Assembly: GCA_016181465.1 (NCBI GenBank)
Contig: JACOZG010000001.1
Location: forward strand, 1-39,084
DNA length: 39,084 bases
Direction: 5' to 3'
Source: Candidatus Vogelbacteria bacterium
GTDB taxonomy: Bacteria > Patescibacteriota > Minisyncoccia > Phycocordibacterales > JACOZG01
In this document: positions 6,286 through 22,885 of the stretch, in pieces
Numbering within the stretch: the first letter of the stretch is position 1
Layout of the letters: the number at the start of each line of letters is the position of its first letter
Program-made: the position numbers and the translations under genes
The notes under the pieces: generated by a model
Databases searched by the model: none
What the model was told of the DNA's origin: nothing
The model's input: only the letters and a program-made list of their open reading frames with translations

Positions 6286-7199
6286 TGCGCACGGTGGATC
6301 AAAAATTGACCGAATCCAGCCGGACGATTTTTGACTCGATGCGCAATCAATTCGGCGAATCGGCGAAAATTATCCGCGAGGTGACCGAACGCCTGACCAA
6401 GCTCGATGAGACTAATAAGCAGGTTGTCAGCTTTGCCGATCAACTTCAGTCGCTGCAAGACATTTTGAAGAATCCCAAACAGCGCGGGGTGCTGGGAGAA
6501 TATTATTTGGAGACCTTGTTAAAGAATGTTTTGCCGCCCGGCAGTTACCAAATGCAGTATCCTTTCTCCGACGGTACGATCGTTGACGCGGTGGTTTTTG
6601 TCAAAGATAAAATTATCCCGATTGATTCTAAATTTTCGCTGGAAAATTACAATCGCTTGGTTGAGGAACGCGATCCGACCGAGCGCGAGCGGCTAGAAAA
6701 ATTATTCAAACAGGACTTGAAAAACCGGATTGACGAAACCGCCAAATATGTCAAGCCCGAGGAACGAACGATGGATTTTGCCTTCATGTTCATCCCGCAT
6801 GAAGCGATCTATTATGACTTGCTGGTGGCGCAAGTCGGCGCCGTCAAGATTAACACCAGAGATCTCGTTGAGTATGCCTTTAAAGAAAAACGCGTAATCA
6901 TTGTTTCGCCGACTTCATTTCTGGCGTATTTGCAAACGGTCTTGCAGGGGCTGAAAGCGCTCCAGATTGAGGAATCGGCGAAAGAGATCCGAACGCGCGT
7001 GGAAAATCTTGGTCGTCACCTCGCCTCTTACGAAGAGTATATGAAGAAATTAGGCGGTTCGCTGGGCACGACGGTCAATCAATATAATCTGGCGTATCGT
7101 GAATTGAAAAAAGTGGATAAGGATGTGACCCGGATTACCGGCGAGAGTCCTGGTTTGGAGACGGTGGCGCTTGATAAACCGGCCTCTATTGAGGAATAA
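6255..7199 (+). CDS. rmuC: DNA recombination protein RmuC, N-terminal anchor apparently missing
   Basis: Coiled coil followed by NPKQRGVLGE, IPIDSKF, TMDFAFMFIPHE and IIVSPT. Confidence 0.9.
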   Translation: MLLQNQINELVRTVDQKLTESSRTIFDSMRNQFGESAKIIREVTERLTKLDETNKQVVSFADQLQSLQDILKNPKQRGVLGEYYLETLLKNVLPPGSYQMQYPFSDGTIVDAVVFVKDKIIPIDSKFSLENYNRLVEERDPTERERLEKLFKQDLKNRIDETAKYVKPEERTMDFAFMFIPHEAIYYDLLVAQVGAVKINTRDLVEYAFKEKRVIIVSPTSFLAYLQTVLQGLKALQIEESAKEIRTRVENLGRHLASYEEYMKKLGGSLGTTVNQYNLAYRELKKVDKDVTRITGESPGLETVALDKPASIEE

Positions 7200-7206
7200 T
7201 AGGATT

Positions 7207-7332
7207 ATGAAAAATTACGACAAAACCGGAGGGAAAAAGGGCAAACCGGCCTTTCGCACGCCGTCGTGGTTTAAAAACGCGCCTGGCAAGCAAAAAGGAT
7301 TTAAACCGGCCTTTCGCCGCCCGAGTGTTTAA
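7207..7332 (+). CDS. Small basic protein (41 aa)
   Basis: AGGA lies just upstream of the ATG. MKNYDKTGGKKGKPAFRTPSWFKNAPGKQKGFKPAFRRPSV fills the rmuC-recR gap. Confidence 0.6.
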   Translation: MKNYDKTGGKKGKPAFRTPSWFKNAPGKQKGFKPAFRRPSV

Positions 7333-7334
7333 GA

Positions 7335-7943
7335 ATGCCTGATGTAATTGAAAAATTGGTCGCGACGTTTCTGCGTTTTCCCGGGATCGGGCCGCGCCAG
7401 GCGCGGCGCTTTGTTTACCATCTCTTGACCCAAAATTCCGGCGCCGTGGAAAATTTGGCTAAAGATTTGCTGGCGCTGAAAAAACAAATTGGCCAATGCC
7501 AAAGCTGTTACAGATTTTTCGCGGCGACGGAAGCGTCGGCCCAAAGCGTCTGCGATCTCTGCCAAGATCCGGCTCGTGACTCTGGTTTCTTGATGATTGT
7601 TGAAAAAGACGCTGACCTTGAGGCGGTGAGAAAATCCAGTGAATACCAGGGGCGATTTTTCGTCCTGGGCGGCTTGTTGCCCATCCTTGAAGCTGAACCG
7701 GAAAAGAAAATCCGCCTTCGGGAGCTCCAAACCCGTCTCAAGGCCAGCCCGGGTCAACTGAAAGAAATTATTCTAGCTTTGGCGGCGAACGTCGAGGGCG
7801 ACAATACTGCTGACTATCTCCAGAAATTTTTAGCGCCCGCCGGTCTCAAAATTTCTGTCCTCGGCCGCGGACTGTCCACTGGCACCGAACTTGAATACTC
7901 GGACGCGGCCACACTGAAAAACGCCCTTAAAAATCGATCCTAG
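7335..7943 (+). CDS. recR: Recombination mediator RecR
   Basis: HhH motif FPGIGPRQARR, C4 zinc finger, and TOPRIM region EIILAL..VEGD.TA..GTELEY.D. Confidence 0.95.
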   Translation: MPDVIEKLVATFLRFPGIGPRQARRFVYHLLTQNSGAVENLAKDLLALKKQIGQCQSCYRFFAATEASAQSVCDLCQDPARDSGFLMIVEKDADLEAVRKSSEYQGRFFVLGGLLPILEAEPEKKIRLRELQTRLKASPGQLKEIILALAANVEGDNTADYLQKFLAPAGLKISVLGRGLSTGTELEYSDAATLKNALKNRS

Positions 7944-8241
7944 TTATTTTAACCTGCGTGTAGGGCTGACGATGCCCGCGTTTTACCCGATAACGAGTTT
8001 TCGCTTTATATTTGAGCACCACCACTTTCTTGGCTCGATTTTGGTCAATGATCTCGCCGGTCACTGTCGCACCGGCCACGATCGGGGTACCGATTTTAAT
8101 CTCTTCCCCGTCTCGCGTTAAAAGCACTTCATTAAAAATCACTGGTTTGCCAGTTTCAACATCCAGTTTTTCCACCCGGAGAGTCTGCCCCTCTGCAACG
8201 CGATATTGCTTCCCGCCGGTTTTAATCACCGCAAATTTCAT
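7927..8241 (-). CDS. rplU: 50S ribosomal protein L21
   Basis: MKFAVIKTGGKQYRV...GHRQPYT. Confidence 0.97.
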   Translation of the reverse strand: MKFAVIKTGGKQYRVAEGQTLRVEKLDVETGKPVIFNEVLLTRDGEEIKIGTPIVAGATVTGEIIDQNRAKKVVVLKYKAKTRYRVKRGHRQPYTQVKITRIDF

Positions 8242-8325
8242 GGCTTTAATCCTAACCCATTTCCTCGCCTTCAACCACTTGACAACAAAACTTAATTATG
8301 ATAACCTAAACGTAAACGCCACTGG

Positions 8326-8340
8326 CAAGGTTAAACCTTG
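8326..8340. repeat. Short palindrome CAAGGTTAAACCTTG (REP-like)
   Basis: Intergenic palindrome with a related copy at 10411-10431. Confidence 0.6.
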
Positions 8341-8390
8341 ACCGTCATCGCTAGCTTAAATGGCGATCAAGATCGGCGAACAGCTTCTCT

Positions 8391-9749
8391 TCAGAAACCG
8401 CCGAAGTCGCCTTTTTCAATACTCGTGAAGCAGACCCGTTTGTCGTCGAAATAAAGTTCAATCGAGCCAGTCGGGCCGTTCCGATGCTTTTCAATCATGA
8501 TTTCGGCGATATTTTTTTTGTCCGAGTCCTCATTATACTTATCCTCGCGGTGAATAAACATCACCACATCGGCGTCTTGCTCGATTGAGCCGGAATCCCG
8601 AAGGTCGGCCAGTCGCGGCCGGCCGCCGCGTTGTTCCACTTGCCGATTTAGTTGGGATAAGGCCAAAACCGGAATATCGAGTTCGCGGGCCAGGGCTTTC
8701 AACGAACGGGAGATCTCGGTGACCTGCTGGACTAACGAATCATTCTCTCGTCTTGGCGCCATCAGCTGCAAGTAATCAACAATGACGAGTCCCAGGTCGT
8801 GCTCGCTTTTCAACCGGCGGGCCACCGACTTCATCTTGGTGATATTGTTAGACGCGTCGTCGTCAATGAAAATCGGCGCTTTGGCCAGCACATCGAGCGC
8901 GTCACGGATTCTGGCAAATTCGTCATCCGCCGCCAGCCGGCCGGTGCGCAATTTCCACGAGTCCACATGGCTCTCGGCGGCGATCAGCCGATCCACGAGC
9001 TGTTGCGAGCTCATCTCCAGCGAAAAAATGCACACTGGCACATTCCGTTTGGCCACTTGTCGGGCAATATCCAGAGCCAGAGAGGTTTTACCCATTGACG
9101 GCCGGGCCGCGAGAATCACGAGATCAGAGCGCTGGAGTCCGGAAAGGCGATCATCCAATGTTTTGAAACCGGTGGCGAGACCGCGGATGCCTTCGCCGGA
9201 TTTGTGCAAACGTTCAAATCGTTCCCAGGCATCAACCAGTGTGTCTTTAATAGAAGTAAAAGTTTTTTTGGAAAAATTGACCAGGCCAAAAATCGTTTTC
9301 TCCGCTTTGTCAAAGATTGAGTCAATCTCTTCTTCTTCGCGGTAGCCAAGTTCGGACAAGCGCTCGGCCGAATCAATCAGCCGGCGTAATTGAGCTTTCT
9401 TGCGGACAATCTCGCCGTAATATTTTAAATTGCCGGCTGAAGGCACAACATTGACAAGTTCCACTAGATAGCTGGAGCCGCCGACGGCCTCGAGTTGTTT
9501 GGTTTCGCTTAAAGCCGAGGTTAAGGAGACTAGATCAATCGGTTCATTTTTATCAAAAAGTTTCAGCATCGCGCGGTAGATCCGGCGGTGGCGCTCGGAA
9601 TAAAAGTCGTCTGGCGCGATGACGGTGATCAGTTCGTTCAAGCCGCTCGGTTTGATCATAATCGAACCCAAGAGAGCCTGCTCGGCCGTCAGATCCTGCG
9701 GCGGCATGCGCAAAGTCGGCTTTACAAATGGGGCGTCAGTGGTAACCAT
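8391..9749 (-). CDS. dnaB: Replicative DNA helicase
   Basis: ARPSMGKT, FSLEMS, VDYLQL, LSQLNR and DLRDSGSIEQDAD. Confidence 0.98.
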   Translation of the reverse strand: MVTTDAPFVKPTLRMPPQDLTAEQALLGSIMIKPSGLNELITVIAPDDFYSERHRRIYRAMLKLFDKNEPIDLVSLTSALSETKQLEAVGGSSYLVELVNVVPSAGNLKYYGEIVRKKAQLRRLIDSAERLSELGYREEEEIDSIFDKAEKTIFGLVNFSKKTFTSIKDTLVDAWERFERLHKSGEGIRGLATGFKTLDDRLSGLQRSDLVILAARPSMGKTSLALDIARQVAKRNVPVCIFSLEMSSQQLVDRLIAAESHVDSWKLRTGRLAADDEFARIRDALDVLAKAPIFIDDDASNNITKMKSVARRLKSEHDLGLVIVDYLQLMAPRRENDSLVQQVTEISRSLKALARELDIPVLALSQLNRQVEQRGGRPRLADLRDSGSIEQDADVVMFIHREDKYNEDSDKKNIAEIMIEKHRNGPTGSIELYFDDKRVCFTSIEKGDFGGF

Positions 9750-10511: not shown

Positions 10512-11813
10512 TTAGATGGTTTCAAGCAGAGGACCAGTTTCAGTGTCTTTAATCTTATAACCGACTTTTTGTATTTCTTGGCGCAAGGCATCGGCCCGCG
10601 GCCAATCCTGTTTTTGTCTGGCAATTTCTCGCTCGGCCGCCAGTTGTCTGACGGCTTCGGGGATGTCGGTTGGCTTGGCCGCGGCGGCCAAATCAAGTCC
10701 TAGCACCCGGTCAAAATCAAGCAGGGTCGCCAGTTTATCGCGCCGCTTTTCTTTATTATCCTTAGTCATAGCCCAAACCGTAGCCAGGGCCTGCGGCAGA
10801 TTCAAATCATCTTCCAACGCCCGATTGAAAGCGTGCTGGTATTTGGCAATGATTTTTCCGGTCCCACTGGCCCCGGCCCAGTCGCGCGCGAAATTCTGCA
10901 ATCGGGCGTAAGCCTTGGCCGCGGCCGCGAGCGCTTCCCAAGTGAAATTGAGCCAAGTTCGGTAATGAACCGTCAGCAGAAAATAGCGATAGGCAAGTGG
11001 ACTGATTTCTTGGGTCATCAAATCAGCCAGCCGCACAACATTGCCCAAAGACTTGGCCATTTTCTGATCGGCGATATTGACGAAAGCCGAGTGTAGCCAG
11101 TACCGCGCCAGAGGTTTACCGGTCAGGGTTTCGGACTGGGCATTTTCATTCTCATGGTGGGGGAAAATTAAATCGGTGCCGCCGAGATGAAGATCAATTT
11201 GCTCGCCCAGCGCGGCGGCGATCATGGCCGAACACTCAATATGCCAACCCGGCCGGCCGCGGCCGAACGATGCGTCCCAGACCGCCTCGCCGTCATCAGG
11301 TTTGTAAAATTTCCACAGAGCAAAATCGCCTTCCGTATCTGGCGTTTGGAATTGACCATAACCTGGAAAACTGGCGATTTTAAAGTAAATTCCATCTTCA
11401 GTCGCGTAAGCCGCGCCGCGCGCCAGCAGTTTTTCAATCAAGACGATCATCTGACCGATAAATTCTGTCGCCCGCGGCAAGGCCGCCGGCCGGCGGATAT
11501 TTAAGGCCGCGAGATCATCGAGAAAAGCCGTTTCGTAACGGGCGGTGAAATTGAGGAGTGTCTCGCCGGCCGCCCGCGCGCCGGCAATCGTTTTATCGTC
11601 AACATCGGTGATATTGATCACTTGGCGAACCGAAAAACCCGACCGTTCCAGCGTCCGCCGGACAAGATCGCTGGTCACAAAAGTCCGTAAATTGCCGAGG
11701 TGCGGTTCGTCGTAAACCGTCGGCCCGCAGGCATAAAACGAGACGGCGGCTGGCAATAAGGGTTTGAAAACTTCTTTTCGCCGCGTCAGAGTGTTGAAGA
11801 AAGTTAGAGCCAT
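10512..11813 (-). CDS. cysS: Cysteine--tRNA ligase
   Basis: YACGPTVYD.PHLGN, DFALWK, GRPGWHIECSAM, FPHHENE and KMAKSLGN. Confidence 0.97.
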   Translation of the reverse strand: MALTFFNTLTRRKEVFKPLLPAAVSFYACGPTVYDEPHLGNLRTFVTSDLVRRTLERSGFSVRQVINITDVDDKTIAGARAAGETLLNFTARYETAFLDDLAALNIRRPAALPRATEFIGQMIVLIEKLLARGAAYATEDGIYFKIASFPGYGQFQTPDTEGDFALWKFYKPDDGEAVWDASFGRGRPGWHIECSAMIAAALGEQIDLHLGGTDLIFPHHENENAQSETLTGKPLARYWLHSAFVNIADQKMAKSLGNVVRLADLMTQEISPLAYRYFLLTVHYRTWLNFTWEALAAAAKAYARLQNFARDWAGASGTGKIIAKYQHAFNRALEDDLNLPQALATVWAMTKDNKEKRRDKLATLLDFDRVLGLDLAAAAKPTDIPEAVRQLAAEREIARQKQDWPRADALRQEIQKVGYKIKDTETGPLLETI

Positions 11814-14222: not shown

Positions 14223-14270
14223 AAAAATCTAACCAACTATTTCCGATCGTGAGAAGATGGTTAGATTTTT
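14223..14270. repeat. Palindromic element with CGATCG core (solo copy)
   Basis: AAAAATCTAACCA-ACTATTTC-CGATCG-TGAGAAGA-TGGTTAGATTTTT, homologous to the copies at 21098 and 21750. Confidence 0.9.
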
Positions 14271-15911: not shown

Positions 15912-16012
15912 AAGACCGGCGACGCCGATTCGAGTTAAGGTATAAATGGTAGAAAAAACTAGGCAATTTCTTACCTAGTTTGTCAAATTCACTTAATAAT
16001 TAAGGACCAGCC

Positions 16013-16156
16013 CTATCTTAGCATACTGTCTAACGATTGTCGAATGGTGCCCCACCATTCCCCGACCAGCGCCCGCAGGTCAATTTTATAGTAAGTGAGA
16101 ACTGCGACAATGATGATAACCAGTAAAAGAGTTTTGATGAATCCTCGCTGCGTCAT
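16013..16156 (-). CDS. Small membrane protein (47 aa) with prepilin-like N-terminus
   Basis: MTQRG-FIKTLLLVIIIVAVL; the ATG follows the M23 gene stop directly. Confidence 0.65.
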   Translation of the reverse strand: MTQRGFIKTLLLVIIIVAVLTYYKIDLRALVGEWWGTIRQSLDSMLR

Positions 16157-18685: not shown

Positions 18686-19822
18686 TTACCTCTCGTGGCT
18701 CAAGGCGAGCTTAATCAATTCTTCGGCAATGAGACGCGCCGCCTGTGGTTTGGCGAAACTTTTGGCCGCGGTGCGCATCGCTTCAAGTAATTTAGGGTTT
18801 CCGATGAGACGATCAATTTCTGACACCAGCACCGAAGGCAGAAAATTATTCTGCTCAATCACGATTGCCCCGCCGGCCCGCGCGTAAGTGAAAGCGTTGC
18901 TCCGTTGGTCGTGGCTGACAGTCTCTGGAATCGGCACCAGAATCGCCGGTATCCCCCACTGGGCGAGCTCAAAGATCATCGAGCCGGCGCGGGAAACCGC
19001 AAGCGTGGCCGCGCCGGCGGCCATCCGCAGCGCCGAACTGTCAAGATAAGCAAAAAGTTTGTAACGGGCGGCGAGCTCATTTTTTTCCAGCACGATCCGT
19101 GTCCGCTTTTCGACGACGTCACGACTGACCGCGCCGGTTTGATGAATCACATTGTACCGTTTTACTAATTCCGGCAAAGCGTCCACCACCACCTCATTGA
19201 TGACGGCCGCGCCCTGCGAACCGCCGGTGACGAGAATGACCGGCAGATCGGGCGCCAGCCCCAGAAATTCTCTCGCGCCCTGCGTCAGCGGATAGTGAAG
19301 CAAACTTCTGATCGGATTGCCGGTAACGGCGATGGCCGCTTGCCGTTTTGGTCCAAAGGCGTCGGCCGCTTCGGCATAAGACAGAGCGATGCGGACAGCG
19401 AACTTTCCGGCCCAGAGATTAGCCCGCCCGGGGCGGGAATCTGACTCGTGAATCACGAGCGGTATGCCGAGCACCCGCGCGGCCAAAACCGTCGGCAAAC
19501 TGACATAGCCGCCTTTGCTCAAAACGACATCCGGGTAAATTAAGTAAAGTCGAATCAGGGCTTTGATTGTTCCCCAAACGATCTTCAAAAGGTCAAAAAA
19601 ATTCAGCAGAGAAAAATAACGCCGCCATTTGCCCGAGCGAATTCGTATAAATTCGATATTATTCTCAAATAAAGCCCGCTCGTCATAAGCCGTGGTGGAA
19701 AAAAGATAAAGTCTGACATTAACCAGTTTGCGTTCTCGGACAATGACGTTGACGGCCTCGGCGATCGCGACAATCGGGTAGAAGTGGCCGCCGGTGCCGC
19801 CGCCGGTAAAAACGATTTTCAT
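18686..19822 (-). CDS. murG: Lipid II N-acetylglucosaminyltransferase MurG
   Basis: GGGTGGH, KGGYVS, GNPIR, GGSQGA, SRAG and DQRSNA. Confidence 0.97.
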   Translation of the reverse strand: MKIVFTGGGTGGHFYPIVAIAEAVNVIVRERKLVNVRLYLFSTTAYDERALFENNIEFIRIRSGKWRRYFSLLNFFDLLKIVWGTIKALIRLYLIYPDVVLSKGGYVSLPTVLAARVLGIPLVIHESDSRPGRANLWAGKFAVRIALSYAEAADAFGPKRQAAIAVTGNPIRSLLHYPLTQGAREFLGLAPDLPVILVTGGSQGAAVINEVVVDALPELVKRYNVIHQTGAVSRDVVEKRTRIVLEKNELAARYKLFAYLDSSALRMAAGAATLAVSRAGSMIFELAQWGIPAILVPIPETVSHDQRSNAFTYARAGGAIVIEQNNFLPSVLVSEIDRLIGNPKLLEAMRTAAKSFAKPQAARLIAEELIKLALSHER

Positions 19823-20922
19823 CTTAAAGATTTAGCATGATGTCTGGAAATATTCAGAATAATACCACAACCGACGAGGGAAAACAGGAGTGAACTGCCG
19901 CCGTGACTAATAAAGGCAAGCGGTATGCCGGTCAAAGGCAAAAGTCCCAGCATGGAAGCGATATTGATGAGGGCGCCGGTTGAAATTAAAACGACAATGC
20001 CGACGATTAACTCCGAGCCGAAACGATCGGCCGTGCGGCGTGCCAGCCCGAGCCCCCAAACGACAAAAGCGACAAAAATACCGATAATGAACAGCCCGCC
20101 GATTAAACCGAATTCCTCGCTGGCGACGGCGAAAATTGAATCACCAATCGGCTCCGGCAAATAATGGAATTTTTGGACACTGCGGCCAAAGCCACGGCCC
20201 CAGAGTCCGCCCGAGCCAATGGCAATCAGCGACTGATTAATTTGATACGATGAGGTTAAAAGATTTTCAGTCGGATTGAGAAAAGTCAAGAAGCGCTCGC
20301 GGGCGTAGGGCTTGACAGCGATCACCGAGCCGCCGGCCGCCAGGGCTAGAAGTAAAACTACAAACACTTGCCGCCACGGGCCGCCGGCAGCGAAGAACAT
20401 AGCCAAGGCCGCCGCGATCAAAACAAAAAAGGTTCCTAGGTCTGGTTCAGCGATGAGCGTAGCGCCAGTCACGCCGACAATCAAAAAGAAAGGTAGTAAG
20501 CCGTATGGCCAATCGGCCAACTGGATCTTGGTCCGCGAAAGCCAAGCGGCCAAATAGACGACGAAAGCGAGTTTCAACAGCTCCGAGGGTTGGAAGGTGC
20601 GCGTGCCGAGGGAAATCCAGCGCTGGGCGCCGCCGGAGGCAAAACCTAAACCGGGCACGAAAACCAATAAACTCACAACGAGCGAAACGAGAAATAGCGG
20701 CAAAGCCAGACGTCGCAAGTGGCGATAATTGAAATGGCTGACGGCAATCATCGCCGCTAAAGCGCCGATAAGAATAGCCAGCTGATTGAAAACAATCCGA
20801 CTGTAACTGGCGCCGTCTCGGTTCAAGAGACCAAGCGAGGCCGAGGAAAAAATAAAAAAACCGATTAAGGTAACAATCAAAATAAAAAAGAAGAAACGGC
20901 GGTTGCTCGCAGGGCGGCGCAT
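19819..20922 (-). CDS. ftsW: SEDS family peptidoglycan glycosyltransferase FtsW
   Basis: GAQRW, FQPSE, EPDLG, YQINQSLIAIGSGG, LPEP..D and PLTGIPLAFISHGGSS. Confidence 0.93.
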   Translation of the reverse strand: MRRPASNRRFFFFILIVTLIGFFIFSSASLGLLNRDGASYSRIVFNQLAILIGALAAMIAVSHFNYRHLRRLALPLFLVSLVVSLLVFVPGLGFASGGAQRWISLGTRTFQPSELLKLAFVVYLAAWLSRTKIQLADWPYGLLPFFLIVGVTGATLIAEPDLGTFFVLIAAALAMFFAAGGPWRQVFVVLLLALAAGGSVIAVKPYARERFLTFLNPTENLLTSSYQINQSLIAIGSGGLWGRGFGRSVQKFHYLPEPIGDSIFAVASEEFGLIGGLFIIGIFVAFVVWGLGLARRTADRFGSELIVGIVVLISTGALINIASMLGLLPLTGIPLAFISHGGSSLLFSLVGCGIILNISRHHAKSLR

Positions 20923-20962
20923 GGTAGAATAATAATAACACTCCCCTCTCGATTTTACTAAC

Positions 20963-21136
20963 GTGGCTTGCCAGAAATGCGAGTGCGATCTCCGTGCCAC
21001 ATCCGATCGCTGTCCAGAATGCGGCACGACCGCCTCGAATTACCCGGGGCGGTTTTTAGTTTCGAGGAGCCAAAAAGATTGCAATTTTCCACAAAATAAA
21101 TCTAACCATCTTCTCACGATCGGAAGAAGATGGTAA
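20963..21136 (+). pseudogene. Zinc-ribbon fragment or small ORF (CQKCECDLRATSDRCPECG)
   Basis: In-frame double CxxC motif at 20969-21025; possible GTG start at 20963, giving 57 aa. Confidence 0.5.
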
Positions 21137-21141
21137 CATTT
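21098..21141. repeat. Palindromic element, left of the PaaX-like gene
   Basis: AAATCTAACCATCTTCTCA-CGATCG-GAAGAAGATGGTAACATTT. Confidence 0.9.
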
Positions 21142-21172
21142 TAATAATAAAAATATAGAAGAGTAAAAGAAA

Positions 21173-21751
21173 ATGAGGAAGATGAAAAAGGGAACTAAGA
21201 AAATTATTAGCCCGACCAAACTAAAAGTTCTGCTCCTTTTCGGTTCAGGGGTGATGCTCGGTCTGACCAGATCACCGAAACAATATTTCAAACTCGTCCG
21301 CACCACAACCAAACTTTGGCACTTCATTGACGAAACTTATTTACGCCGGCTGGTGAAAGAATTTTACGAAGACCGACTGGTGGATTATCGCGAGAGAGAT
21401 GACGGTAAAATTGAGGTAGTGATAACCGAACGCGGCCGTAATACCTTACTCCGTTACGATATTGACCGGTTGGAAATTAGACCCTCGGCGCGCTGGGACG
21501 GCAAATGGCGCATTGTCATTTTCGATATACCAGAACGATTGCGAACCGGCCGCGATGCCTTGCGTCAAAAATTACGCGAGTTAGGTTTTCAAAAATTGCA
21601 AGAGTCGGTTTTCATTATCCCCCACCCTTGTGCGAACGAAATAAATTTTCTGATTGAATTTTTCGATCTCCGTTATTTTGTTCGTCTTTTAGAAACGGAT
21701 AAAATCACTAATGAAGCCGAACTCCTGCTTAAATTCAAACTCCGTAAATAA
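21173..21751 (+). CDS. PaaX-like protein: winged-helix region plus Cas2-like ferredoxin-fold domain
   Basis: ITERG wing, then WDGKWRIVIFDIPE..R..RDALRQKL..LGF..LQESV. Lies opposite in orientation between mraY and ftsW. Confidence 0.85.
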   Translation: MRKMKKGTKKIISPTKLKVLLLFGSGVMLGLTRSPKQYFKLVRTTTKLWHFIDETYLRRLVKEFYEDRLVDYRERDDGKIEVVITERGRNTLLRYDIDRLEIRPSARWDGKWRIVIFDIPERLRTGRDALRQKLRELGFQKLQESVFIIPHPCANEINFLIEFFDLRYFVRLLETDKITNEAELLLKFKLRK

Positions 21752-21794
21752 ATCTAACCATCTTCTTCCGATCGGAAATAGTTGGTTAGATTTT
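21750..21794. repeat. Palindromic element, right of the PaaX-like gene
   Basis: AAATCTAACCATCTTCTTC-CGATCG-GAAATAGTTGGTTAGATTTT, overlapping the stop codon. Confidence 0.9.
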
Positions 21795-21814: not shown

Positions 21815-22885
21815 TCAGCGGCCGACGAGGGTGATAATCATCCCGATCACCGCGGCGATGATGCTAATAATCCAATAGCGCATCACCACCTTGTATGGCG
21901 GCCAGCCGATCGCTTCGAAATGGTGATGTAGGGGCGCGACGAGAAAAACCTTTTTGCCGTGTCTAAATTTTTTAGAACCGAGTTGAATGACATTAACAAC
22001 CACCGTCGCGAAAAGCGGCAAGGCGATAATCGGCAAAACAACCACTGACTCGGTCAGGAAAGCCAAAATCGTCAAGGTCGTAGTTAAACCCAAGATTCCG
22101 GTCTCGGACATATAAAATCTCGCCGGCGGGATGTTGAACCACAAAAAAGCCAAAATACTGCCGGTCACCACGGCCGCGAACGCCGCCAGATCAATTTGGT
22201 TTTGGAAAAAAGCGATGCCGGCGTAAGCGCCGAAAATAATCGCCATCACGCCGCCGGCGAGTCCATCAAGTCCGTCAATAACACTGCTGGAAAATAAAAT
22301 GATCATTACCGCCACAAAGAACGGGATGATTAGCCAACCGATTGTCAGTTCACCCAAAAATGGCAGGTCAACCGTGGAGAGGCCGAGTTTGTAATAAAAC
22401 CACCAGGCGCCGACGAGGCCGAGCAGGGCGACTAAGATCAAACGTTTCTTAAAAGATAGGCCGCGGTCGCCCCTGGCTGATTGCCAACCCCTAATTTCTA
22501 AAATATCGTCAATCAAACCAACCAATGAACCAACCAGCAAGGTAAAAAACGGCAGCCAGGTTTGATTGCGGCTTAGAAAATTAAGTTTGACCGCGAGCGG
22601 CGTGGGCCAAAATCTGGCCGACAGCCAGAAACCGAAAATCGTCAAGGCCGTGCTGACCCAAATAATGACGCCGCCCAAACGGGGCGTCCCGACCTCGCGC
22701 TCTTTGTGGAGCTGATTGAAAATCGGTGTGTTTCGGCCGTCCGGAGCGATCTTACCGGCCTGTTTTTTCCACAGCCGATATTTATAAAGATAGTGGGTCA
22801 GAATCGGAGTAATGATTAAACCGATGAAAAAAGCAACGGTGCTGGGCGCGAAAACTTTGAAAATATTGACGATCTCGGTGGTCAT
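21815..22885 (-). CDS. mraY: Phospho-N-acetylmuramoyl-pentapeptide transferase
   Basis: GTPRLGG, GLIDD, DGLDGLA, FLWFNIPPARFYM and APLHHHFE. Confidence 0.96.
   Translation of the reverse strand: MTTEIVNIFKVFAPSTVAFFIGLIITPILTHYLYKYRLWKKQAGKIAPDGRNTPIFNQLHKEREVGTPRLGGVIIWVSTALTIFGFWLSARFWPTPLAVKLNFLSRNQTWLPFFTLLVGSLVGLIDDILEIRGWQSARGDRGLSFKKRLILVALLGLVGAWWFYYKLGLSTVDLPFLGELTIGWLIIPFFVAVMIILFSSSVIDGLDGLAGGVMAIIFGAYAGIAFFQNQIDLAAFAAVVTGSILAFLWFNIPPARFYMSETGILGLTTTLTILAFLTESVVVLPIIALPLFATVVVNVIQLGSKKFRHGKKVFLVAPLHHHFEAIGWPPYKVVMRYWIISIIAAVIGMIITLVGR

Follow-up and report, generated by a model that had tools for sequence, protein, structure and literature searches.

What is the small gene that lies, on the strand opposite to both of its neighbors, between a mraY-type gene and ftsW in the genome of an ultra-small groundwater bacterium, and why does it sit between two long palindromes? 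The gene occupies positions 21173 to 21751 of a stretch of 39,084 nucleotides from Candidatus Vogelbacteria bacterium (the whole stretch is referred to as the window), which is contig 2 of a 644-kb genome in 48 contigs that is 91% complete and resembles Candidate Phyla Radiation (CPR) genomes. Its product belongs to a protein family commonly labelled "Cas2" or "PaaX," and to our knowledge hardly any regulators or mobile elements have been characterized in the tiny genomes of the CPR, or Patescibacteria. An earlier reading of the locus from its letters alone, here called the sequence-only reading, had proposed that the unit at 21098 to 21793 is a minimal one-gene mobile cassette or a RAYT-like system, with an exact empty site at 14223-14270. 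We found that the gene, which we call mini-PaaX, is part of a module in which a gene of this family lies between direct copies of its own palindrome. This module is apparently undescribed; our literature searches turned up no description of it. The unit and a related solo site have the following features.

21098..21141, no strand: upstream palindrome L, 44 bp, consisting of a 19-nt half, the CGATCG center (21117-22) and a second 19-nt half; 31 nt lie between its end and the start codon.

21173..21751, + strand: the mini-PaaX gene, a 192-aa open reading frame (ORF) with a hydrophobic N-terminal helix, a winged-helix-like part and a Cas2-like ferredoxin domain.

21750..21793, no strand: downstream palindrome R, 44 bp, in the same orientation as L; it shares 2 nt with the stop codon, and 21 nt separate it from the mraY stop.

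14225..14268, no strand: solo consensus palindrome of the same class as L and R, between an S41 protease gene and rplI.

Each of these 44-mers is built from a 19-nt half, CGATCG and the reverse complement of a 19-nt half. When both strands were compared, we recovered the hybrid relation that the sequence-only reading had described: the reverse complement of the solo site is the left half of L, the center and the right half of R. The centers of L and R are 652 bp apart, so that the implied circle would measure ~650 bp, and its junction, read from the sequence, would be a 30-bp palindrome, both as that reading had it. Its placement of the gene antisense between mraY and ftsW also held, with the gene on the + strand and both neighbors on the − strand. 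Within the coding region, a 24-nt segment is imperfectly duplicated in tandem at 21565-21614 (2.1 copies, with 81% matches).

We identified eight PaaX_M genes in the source genome, 26 to 73% identical in pairwise comparisons; with 8 copies in 644 kb, they make up its largest family of DNA-binding-type proteins. All eight carry their own version of the palindrome just upstream and just downstream, in the orientation of the gene. The palindrome center is CGATCG at six of these loci, CGACCG on contig 23 and CTATCG on contig 6, and the two most divergent paralogs (contigs 17 and 26) have one arm type in common. Together with the 10 complete homolog loci of relatives these formed a set of 18 loci, from which an eleventh relative locus, a partial homolog at a contig start, was excluded. 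Bracketing palindromes were present at 18/18 loci, including 10/10 of those from relatives. A distance of −5 to +31 nt separates the end of the upstream site from the start codon, and one of −3 to +59 nt separates the stop from the beginning of the downstream site. Both copies have the same hexamer center at 17 of the 18 loci, and at the three loci with an asymmetric center both copies point the same way, which identifies the bracketing copies as direct repeats. Mean arm identity was 0.68 within a locus compared to 0.44 between loci, and palindrome similarity tracks protein identity, with a Mantel r of 0.54 (reached by 0/5000 permutations) that is somewhat overstated because the loci are related to each other. 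The gene-proximal halves are more alike than the distal halves at 13 loci, equally alike at 3 and less alike at 2, with summed identities of 245 versus 206. Thus, the covariation of palindromes and protein family that the sequence-only reading had asked about is found across the set. Several loci also have classic GC-rich terminators adjoining the palindromes, so the palindromes are not the sole terminators. The number of mini-PaaX copies ranged from 0 to 9 per genome among 31 genomes, with 0, 2, 1, 2, and 0 copies in five congeners.

The palindromes beside the paralogs belong to a larger family. The outer 11-mer, allowing at most 1 mismatch, occurs 6 times in the window compared to 0.89 expected, a number reached by 1 of 100 shuffles, and in exact form it occurs 16 times in the genome compared to once for a reversed control. 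Of 353 genomic CGATCG hexamers, 29 have flanks that are palindromic at 11 or more of 19 positions (the background mode is 4); for seven control hexamers the figure was 3/1085. The palindromes therefore repeat far above chance. In total, we counted ~40 in the genome, 16 beside paralogs and ~25 solo, and the clear copies are all intergenic, with many lying 0 to 30 nt from the stop codon of a housekeeping gene. Class Ia, the class of the gene at 21173-21751, has ~11 copies, while the contig-23 class has its own arm type and six solo copies. Matches to the class-I pattern numbered 17 in the source genome compared to 0 to 2 in each of 30 relatives. A search of Rfam with the palindromes, a palindrome array on contig 19 and an insert on contig 15 returned no family, with tRNAs alone matched.

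This wider family changes how the solo site at 14225-14268 is to be read. Its 44-mer is identical at three sites (C2:14225, C19:6845, and C19:7715) and equals the class Ia consensus, and it matches the left half of L joined to the right half of R because these two halves are simply the consensus halves. When we joined halves at the center for 52 pairs of nonidentical class Ia copies, the product was an existing third copy in 7, one of which pairs L with another solo copy. The outer and inner parts of a single half also occur in all combinations, so that modularity is a general property of the family and is not confined to the center. Hence the solo site is one of three identical consensus copies and loses its standing as an exact empty site, and the suggested check on arm combinations reveals a relation that is general in the family.

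Some of the solo palindromes accompany small genes. On contig 19, beside alaS, positions 6845-8575 contain two single-ORF units between three class Ia palindromes. The small ORFs here and at 1127-2236 of contig 4 (211, 179, and 282 aa) are of membrane or secreted type, and each such unit has its own promoter-like region, a GC-rich terminator and a class Ia palindrome at its end; the flanks outside the palindromes are also alike between the contig-19 and contig-4 units. The contig-4 unit is a precise 1110-nt cassette of promoter, ORF, terminator, and palindrome that abuts the 3′ end of a tRNA gene and is absent in the sister genome considered below. Also absent there is a 280-nt insert at 7716-8003 of contig 15, between frr and an RseP-type gene, which has a near-consensus promoter (TTGACA, 17 nt, TATAAT), ~110 nt, a terminator, and a palindrome, and which may be a small RNA gene.

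The genome also has five Y1 transposase (RAYT-type) genes, on contigs 45, 42, 44, 11, and 36, which have a different palindrome family of their own; two palindrome systems therefore coexist, and a link of the CGATCG palindromes to these genes was rejected on this ground. Y1-type palindromes adjoin some CGATCG palindromes, e.g., on contig 38 at about 1760-1790 and on contig 25 at about 19430.

We next consider the protein. Against Pfam, mini-PaaX matched PaaX_M (2.3e-23) as its only PaaX domain and, weakly, Cas2 (PF09827, 8.3e-5), and it scored 25.5 bits against a cutoff of 24.5 for the Cas2 model TIGR01573. An AlphaFold model built from an 18-row alignment has a mean per-residue confidence (pLDDT) of 72. 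The Cas2-like part at residues about 106 to 190 was modelled at a pLDDT of 85 to 95 as beta-alpha-beta-beta-alpha-beta, and D118 and E121, at the end of its first strand, are invariant in 18 sequences. In a Foldseek search with the model, Escherichia coli PaaX (8a39) came first with an E value of 1.9e-4, the sole match at or below 0.001, followed by VapD, Rv0674, and several Cas2 structures (Cas2 at ranks 5 to 9). A search of the PDB by sequence gave nothing significant, with one chain at an E value of 0.13. A homodimer was predicted with an interface score (ipSAE) of 0.45, compared to 0.00 for the best of 3 controls, and with the interface in the sheet of the Cas2-like domain; at least 93% of contacts agree between runs, and partner pLDDT was at least 75. 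The mark of 0.45 was reached by 20/30 proteins solved as pairs and by 1/23 solved as single chains. Because Cas2 and PaaX dimers have already been solved, the prediction may reflect this likeness and need not be an independent result. Taken together, these models describe the gene product as a mini-PaaX, i.e., a winged-helix part and a Cas2-like dimerizing domain without the C-terminal domain of true PaaX. Residues 14 to 31 form a strongly hydrophobic, membrane-anchor-like helix at the start of all 18 homologs (model pLDDT about 60), which is odd in a soluble DNA-binding protein.

A role as a phenylacetate regulator, which the sequence-only reading had already discounted, was rejected. The PaaX equivalog model TIGR02277 gave 31.5 bits against a cutoff of 264.55, with the match limited to residues 102-168. 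Profile searches found no PaaX_C anywhere in the genome, nor PaaA or PaaC in its 91%-complete assembly, and the neighbors are cell-wall and cell-division genes. No gene matched a Cas1 family in the genome, and the window contains no CRISPR repeat array.

The locus itself lies inside the cell-wall/cell-division (dcw) cluster, and the features around the unit are as follows.

21131..21139, + strand: gene-proximal arm of L, which by eye reads as an extended −10 element (TGGTAACAT) toward the gene and is a putative part of its promoter.

21028..21057, + strand: terminator-like hairpin to the left of L, called by the terminator scan.

21815..22885, − strand: mraY-type gene (Glycos_transf_4, 3e-21), the right border of the insert.

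19819-21027, − strand: ftsW (FTSW_RODA_SPOVE, 1e-88), at the left border, where DNA is conserved up to 20962.

The true start of ftsW is probably near 20925, judging from relatives, which align from residue 35.

We compared this locus with its counterparts in five congeners (the source genome is labelled G000, the sister genome G004 and two other congeners G002 and G003). None of the five congeners has the unit between mraY and ftsW, and in 4 of the 5 the two genes lie 2 to 15 nt apart with no palindrome between them; these gaps were taken from match coordinates, and the junction sequence was read for one. A search of metagenomes with MraY yielded 80 loci, 58 with both genes and 22 without ftsW within reach. 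The 58 gaps comprise 48 of at most 122 nt and 10 of 1.0 to 2.0 kb; none holds a mini-PaaX homolog, and none of the 22 scanned gaps longer than 40 nt holds the palindrome. The best match in this search was 81% identical, and no strain-level variant of the locus was among the results. The absence of the unit from congeners and metagenome gaps alike marks it as a lineage-specific insert, and the gene is thus not fixed at this locus, a point on which the earlier proposal had depended.

The sister genome G004, which we pieced together from fetched stretches before mapping flanks onto it, is the congener that differs. Its mraY-type gene is 83.9% identical in nucleotides up to 21819, and homology on the left side stops at 20962. 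In between, the sister has, in order from mraY, one palindrome of the same class with the center CGGCCG, a terminator, and a 194-aa gene on the other strand (L013, 1474-2058), which is followed by ftsW. The window keeps the sister's terminator (21030-57 versus L013 1418-1445, 89% over 28 nt) and has lost the 194-aa gene, so by its sequence the hairpin at 21028..21057 is a remnant of the gene still present in the sister. A 57-aa ORF with two CxxC pairs (window 20963-21136, +) runs from the ftsW upstream region through this hairpin into L; it sits at the place of the 194-aa gene and could be a remnant or a chance frame.

The flanks of the sister's palindrome are orthologous to the outer flanks of L and of R. 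By eye, its left half matches the left half of L at 17/19 positions versus 15/19 for R, and its right half matches the right half of R at 15/19 versus 12/19 for L. As an L/R hybrid it would have 6 arm mismatches, compared to 8 as a plain ortholog of R, a margin of 2 nt. The sister palindrome is therefore weakly compatible with one exchange at the center, which could have inserted the unit here or deleted it between direct repeats in the sister. As to the suggested check for an empty site between mraY and ftsW in relatives, the sister has one palindrome there that fits the joined outer halves better than R by those 2 nt, and four congeners have none.

Elsewhere in the genome, the sister comparison gave a different picture. 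Four further paralog positions could be evaluated, on contigs 23, 17, 26, and 11 (for contig 12, the sister has an orthologous unit, and contigs 6 and 28 gave no clear comparison), and at all four the sister lacks both the unit and the palindrome. On contig 23, for example, ~740 nt including both sites correspond to 10 nt in the sister. The four solo sites with a clear sister comparison (on contigs 4 and 15 and two on contig 25) all lie within segments of ~280 to 1110 nt that are absent in the sister and carry promoters, ORFs, and terminators; these sites are 11 to 51 nt from one edge of the segment, and none is a bare 44-bp insertion. The sister genome in turn has solo sites of two classes without matching paralogs.

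Individual spots appear to differ in content between genomes. Beside dprA, mini-PaaX units that are 32% identical and have different palindrome classes occur on contig 26 (307-976) and in G003 (locus L007); the spot is empty in the sister (G004 contig 7, about 15934-16022) and may be an insertion hot spot. At another spot, G002 has a mini-PaaX unit and the source genome a solo palindrome with a small gene, and the sister has nothing. The sister also has another long palindrome family, whose copies with the center CGCGCG at 57556-57599 and 59963-60006 of G004 contig 2 bracket ~2.4 kb. A related copy with another center follows a ychF-type gene (G004 contig 4, about 11330-11370) at the spot of a class II CGATCG palindrome in G000, which suggests that one family replaces another there.

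How, then, might the parts of the module work together? On balance we favor, by somewhat more than even chances, a self-contained, high-turnover module of a DNA-binding protein and its cognate sites, in which a dimer binds the palindrome and controls its own gene through the promoter-bearing upstream copy. The mini-PaaX dimer would bind its own 44-bp palindrome. The upstream copy would bear the gene's −10-like arm near the start codon, so that binding there would control the gene's own transcription; by eye, the corresponding arms at four other paralogs read TGGTATAAT, TGGTATAGT or TGGTATCAT. The downstream copy at the stop codon would provide a second site for binding and/or serve as a hairpin terminator or insulator, and solo copies between other genes would be additional binding sites. 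The palindrome-gene-palindrome unit is, in this view, an accessory, high-turnover module that in this lineage sits in the dcw cluster at a place where the sister has one palindrome, and with bracketing copies in direct orientation, the gene could plausibly be gained or lost when palindromes exchange. The anatomy, the paralog families, the covariation and the pattern of presence and absence are observed, while binding to DNA, autoregulation and any recombination are what we infer. Several observations weigh against this explanation. The N-terminal part, modelled as three helices and a beta hairpin, has a pLDDT of 50 to 70, i.e., the winged helix is of low confidence, and a simple two-hexamer promoter scan did not call the gene-proximal L arm. 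At ~27 bp, the spacing of the half-sites is large for the operator of a simple winged-helix dimer, and the sister retains class Ia-like solo sites without a close homolog of the 21173-21751 product. A plain regulator moreover leaves unexplained why every locus has a downstream copy, why the copies are direct with matched centers (17/18), why D118 and E121, which are acidic residues of Cas2 type, are invariant, why there is such a burst of solo copies (17 pattern matches versus 0 to 2 in 30 relatives), and why solo copies lie inside lineage-specific insertions.

A first alternative is a one-gene mobile cassette, in which a ~650-bp circle with one near-perfect palindrome enters or leaves the 6-bp center of a resident palindrome, either by conservative site-specific recombination or, equivalently, by transposition with a 6-bp target duplication, and leaves hybrids resembling attL and attR. 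Catalysis would fall to the Cas2-fold protein or to a recombinase of the host. In favor are the direct orientation of L and R, the 6-bp center common to both copies at 17 of 18 loci (including the three asymmetric centers in the same orientation), the closer likeness of the gene-proximal than of the distal halves at 13 loci (3 equal, 2 less), and the invariance of D118 and E121. The sister has a single palindrome exactly here, with halves nearer to L-left and R-right and both flanks orthologous, and the dprA spot carries 32%-identical paralogs in two congeners and nothing in another. Against such a cassette, the sister lacks unit and palindrome at the 4/4 other evaluable paralog loci (C23, C17, C26, and C11), its palindrome here is nearly as well explained as a plain R ortholog (8 versus 6 mismatches), and the hybrid relation is common in the family (7/52 pairs) with a modularity that is not specific to the center. 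When joined outer and inner halves were compared by eye with solo sites, class Ia fitted, C26 fitted in part and C23 failed; in the C23 class, the upstream distal half differs from the solo type. No recombinase lies in or beside any unit; the genome's one tyrosine and one serine recombinase genes are both on contigs other than the window's. The paralogs are all old, at most 73% identical. Neither an L-R joint nor its back-joint occurs in the assembled Logan contigs of four runs from one study (three of these runs may be the source), contigs that drop rare forms, and the loose contig ends at the L and R sites are the flanks of other genomic copies. We consider a cassette of this kind unlikely. 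The broader proposal that mini-PaaX units are a new kind of CPR one-gene mobile element, in which the Cas2-fold and winged-helix protein, by itself or aided by a host recombinase, moves its gene, and perhaps further palindrome-ended single-gene cassettes, into and out of the palindrome centers, with solo copies as docking sites or scars, is in our view likewise unlikely. The direct repeats with matched centers, the likeness of the gene-proximal halves and the sister's single palindrome at this locus are compatible with exchange at the centers; neither a link to a recombinase nor, in the contigs, a junction form was seen.

A selfish system of REP/RAYT kind, in which the protein multiplies its own palindrome through the genome, would also bracket a gene with cognate palindromes and disperse solo copies between other genes. 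It would fit the three copies that are identical at 44/44 positions although the intergenic DNA differs widely from that of the sister, the 17 class-I pattern matches versus 0 to 2 in 30 relatives, and the 4/4 comparable solo sites in insertions specific to the source genome. We regard it as quite improbable, since mini-PaaX has no HUH/Y1 domain in Pfam, the palindromes of the five Y1 transposase genes belong to another family, the bracketing copies run in direct and not inverted orientation, 0/4 of the insertion-borne solo sites are bare 44-bp inserts (they lie in segments of ~280 to 1110 nt with promoters, ORFs, and terminators), and the sister retains solo sites of two classes without matching paralogs. 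Finally, the palindromes might be mere cis elements, such as bidirectional terminators or promoters, that are unlinked to the protein and bracket its gene by coincidence or shared intergenic ancestry. Many copies lie 0 to 30 nt from the stop codons of housekeeping genes. The palindromes form stable hairpins with A/T-run flanks (as single-stranded DNA, L folds at −8.5 kcal/mol, z −4.2, and R at −11 kcal/mol, z −5.1), and a terminator scan flags one strand of L. This view is very improbable in light of the 18/18 homolog loci that are bracketed by their own version with arms that covary with the protein, and of the GC-rich terminators next to palindromes at several loci.

The favored module of a palindrome-binding protein and its sites resembles several known systems in part. 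In PaaX (E. coli W, 8a39; PF07848, PF20803, and PF08223), a comparable N-terminal helical/winged part is followed by a Cas2-like middle domain, and mini-PaaX likewise probably binds palindromic DNA as a dimer. With 192 aa, however, it is ~110 residues shorter and has no PaaX_C, and unlike PaaX it occurs in 8 paralogs, each with its own bracketing palindromes, plus dispersed solo copies. In a REPtron, i.e., REP/REPIN sequences with their RAYT gene, the gene of an HUH-Y1 protein lies between cognate inverted palindromes. The mini-PaaX gene is similarly placed between cognate palindromes, with intergenic solo copies of the same class and a class specific to the gene copy, but it has no HUH-Y1 domain, its copies are direct, its solo copies are not seen as bare insertions, and a genuine RAYT/REP family with other palindromes coexists in the source genome. 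Like Cas2 and VapD, mini-PaaX has a ferredoxin-like fold, a predicted sheet dimer and, where strand 1 ends, a conserved acidic residue; unlike Cas2, the domain is fused to a DNA-binding-type N-terminal part, and no cas1 was found in the genome and no array in the window. Integrons have attC cassettes, and integrative elements use Xer-type sites that consist of an arm, a 6-bp center, and an arm. Here, too, imperfect palindromes bound single-gene units as direct repeats with a common 6-bp center, and one locus on contig 19 has three sites that separate two small genes; in contrast to those systems, the arrays have no neighboring integrase, the arms measure 19 nt, junction products were not seen in the contigs, and empty loci mostly have no site.

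The module thus comprises a protein family that always comes with two copies of its own long palindrome and has further copies around the genome, and it offers a testable pair of protein and DNA site across the whole radiation. The mraY/ftsW locus provides a natural pair of an occupied and a single-palindrome state between sister genomes in an otherwise rigid cell-division operon, which is the best natural material for tests of the cassette and REP-like explanations. Should the palindromes be operators, the module would give access to gene regulation in CPR organisms. Should they be sites of recombination, the module would represent a new minimal mobile element based on the Cas2 fold, and this, if true, would tie that fold to DNA mobility outside CRISPR.

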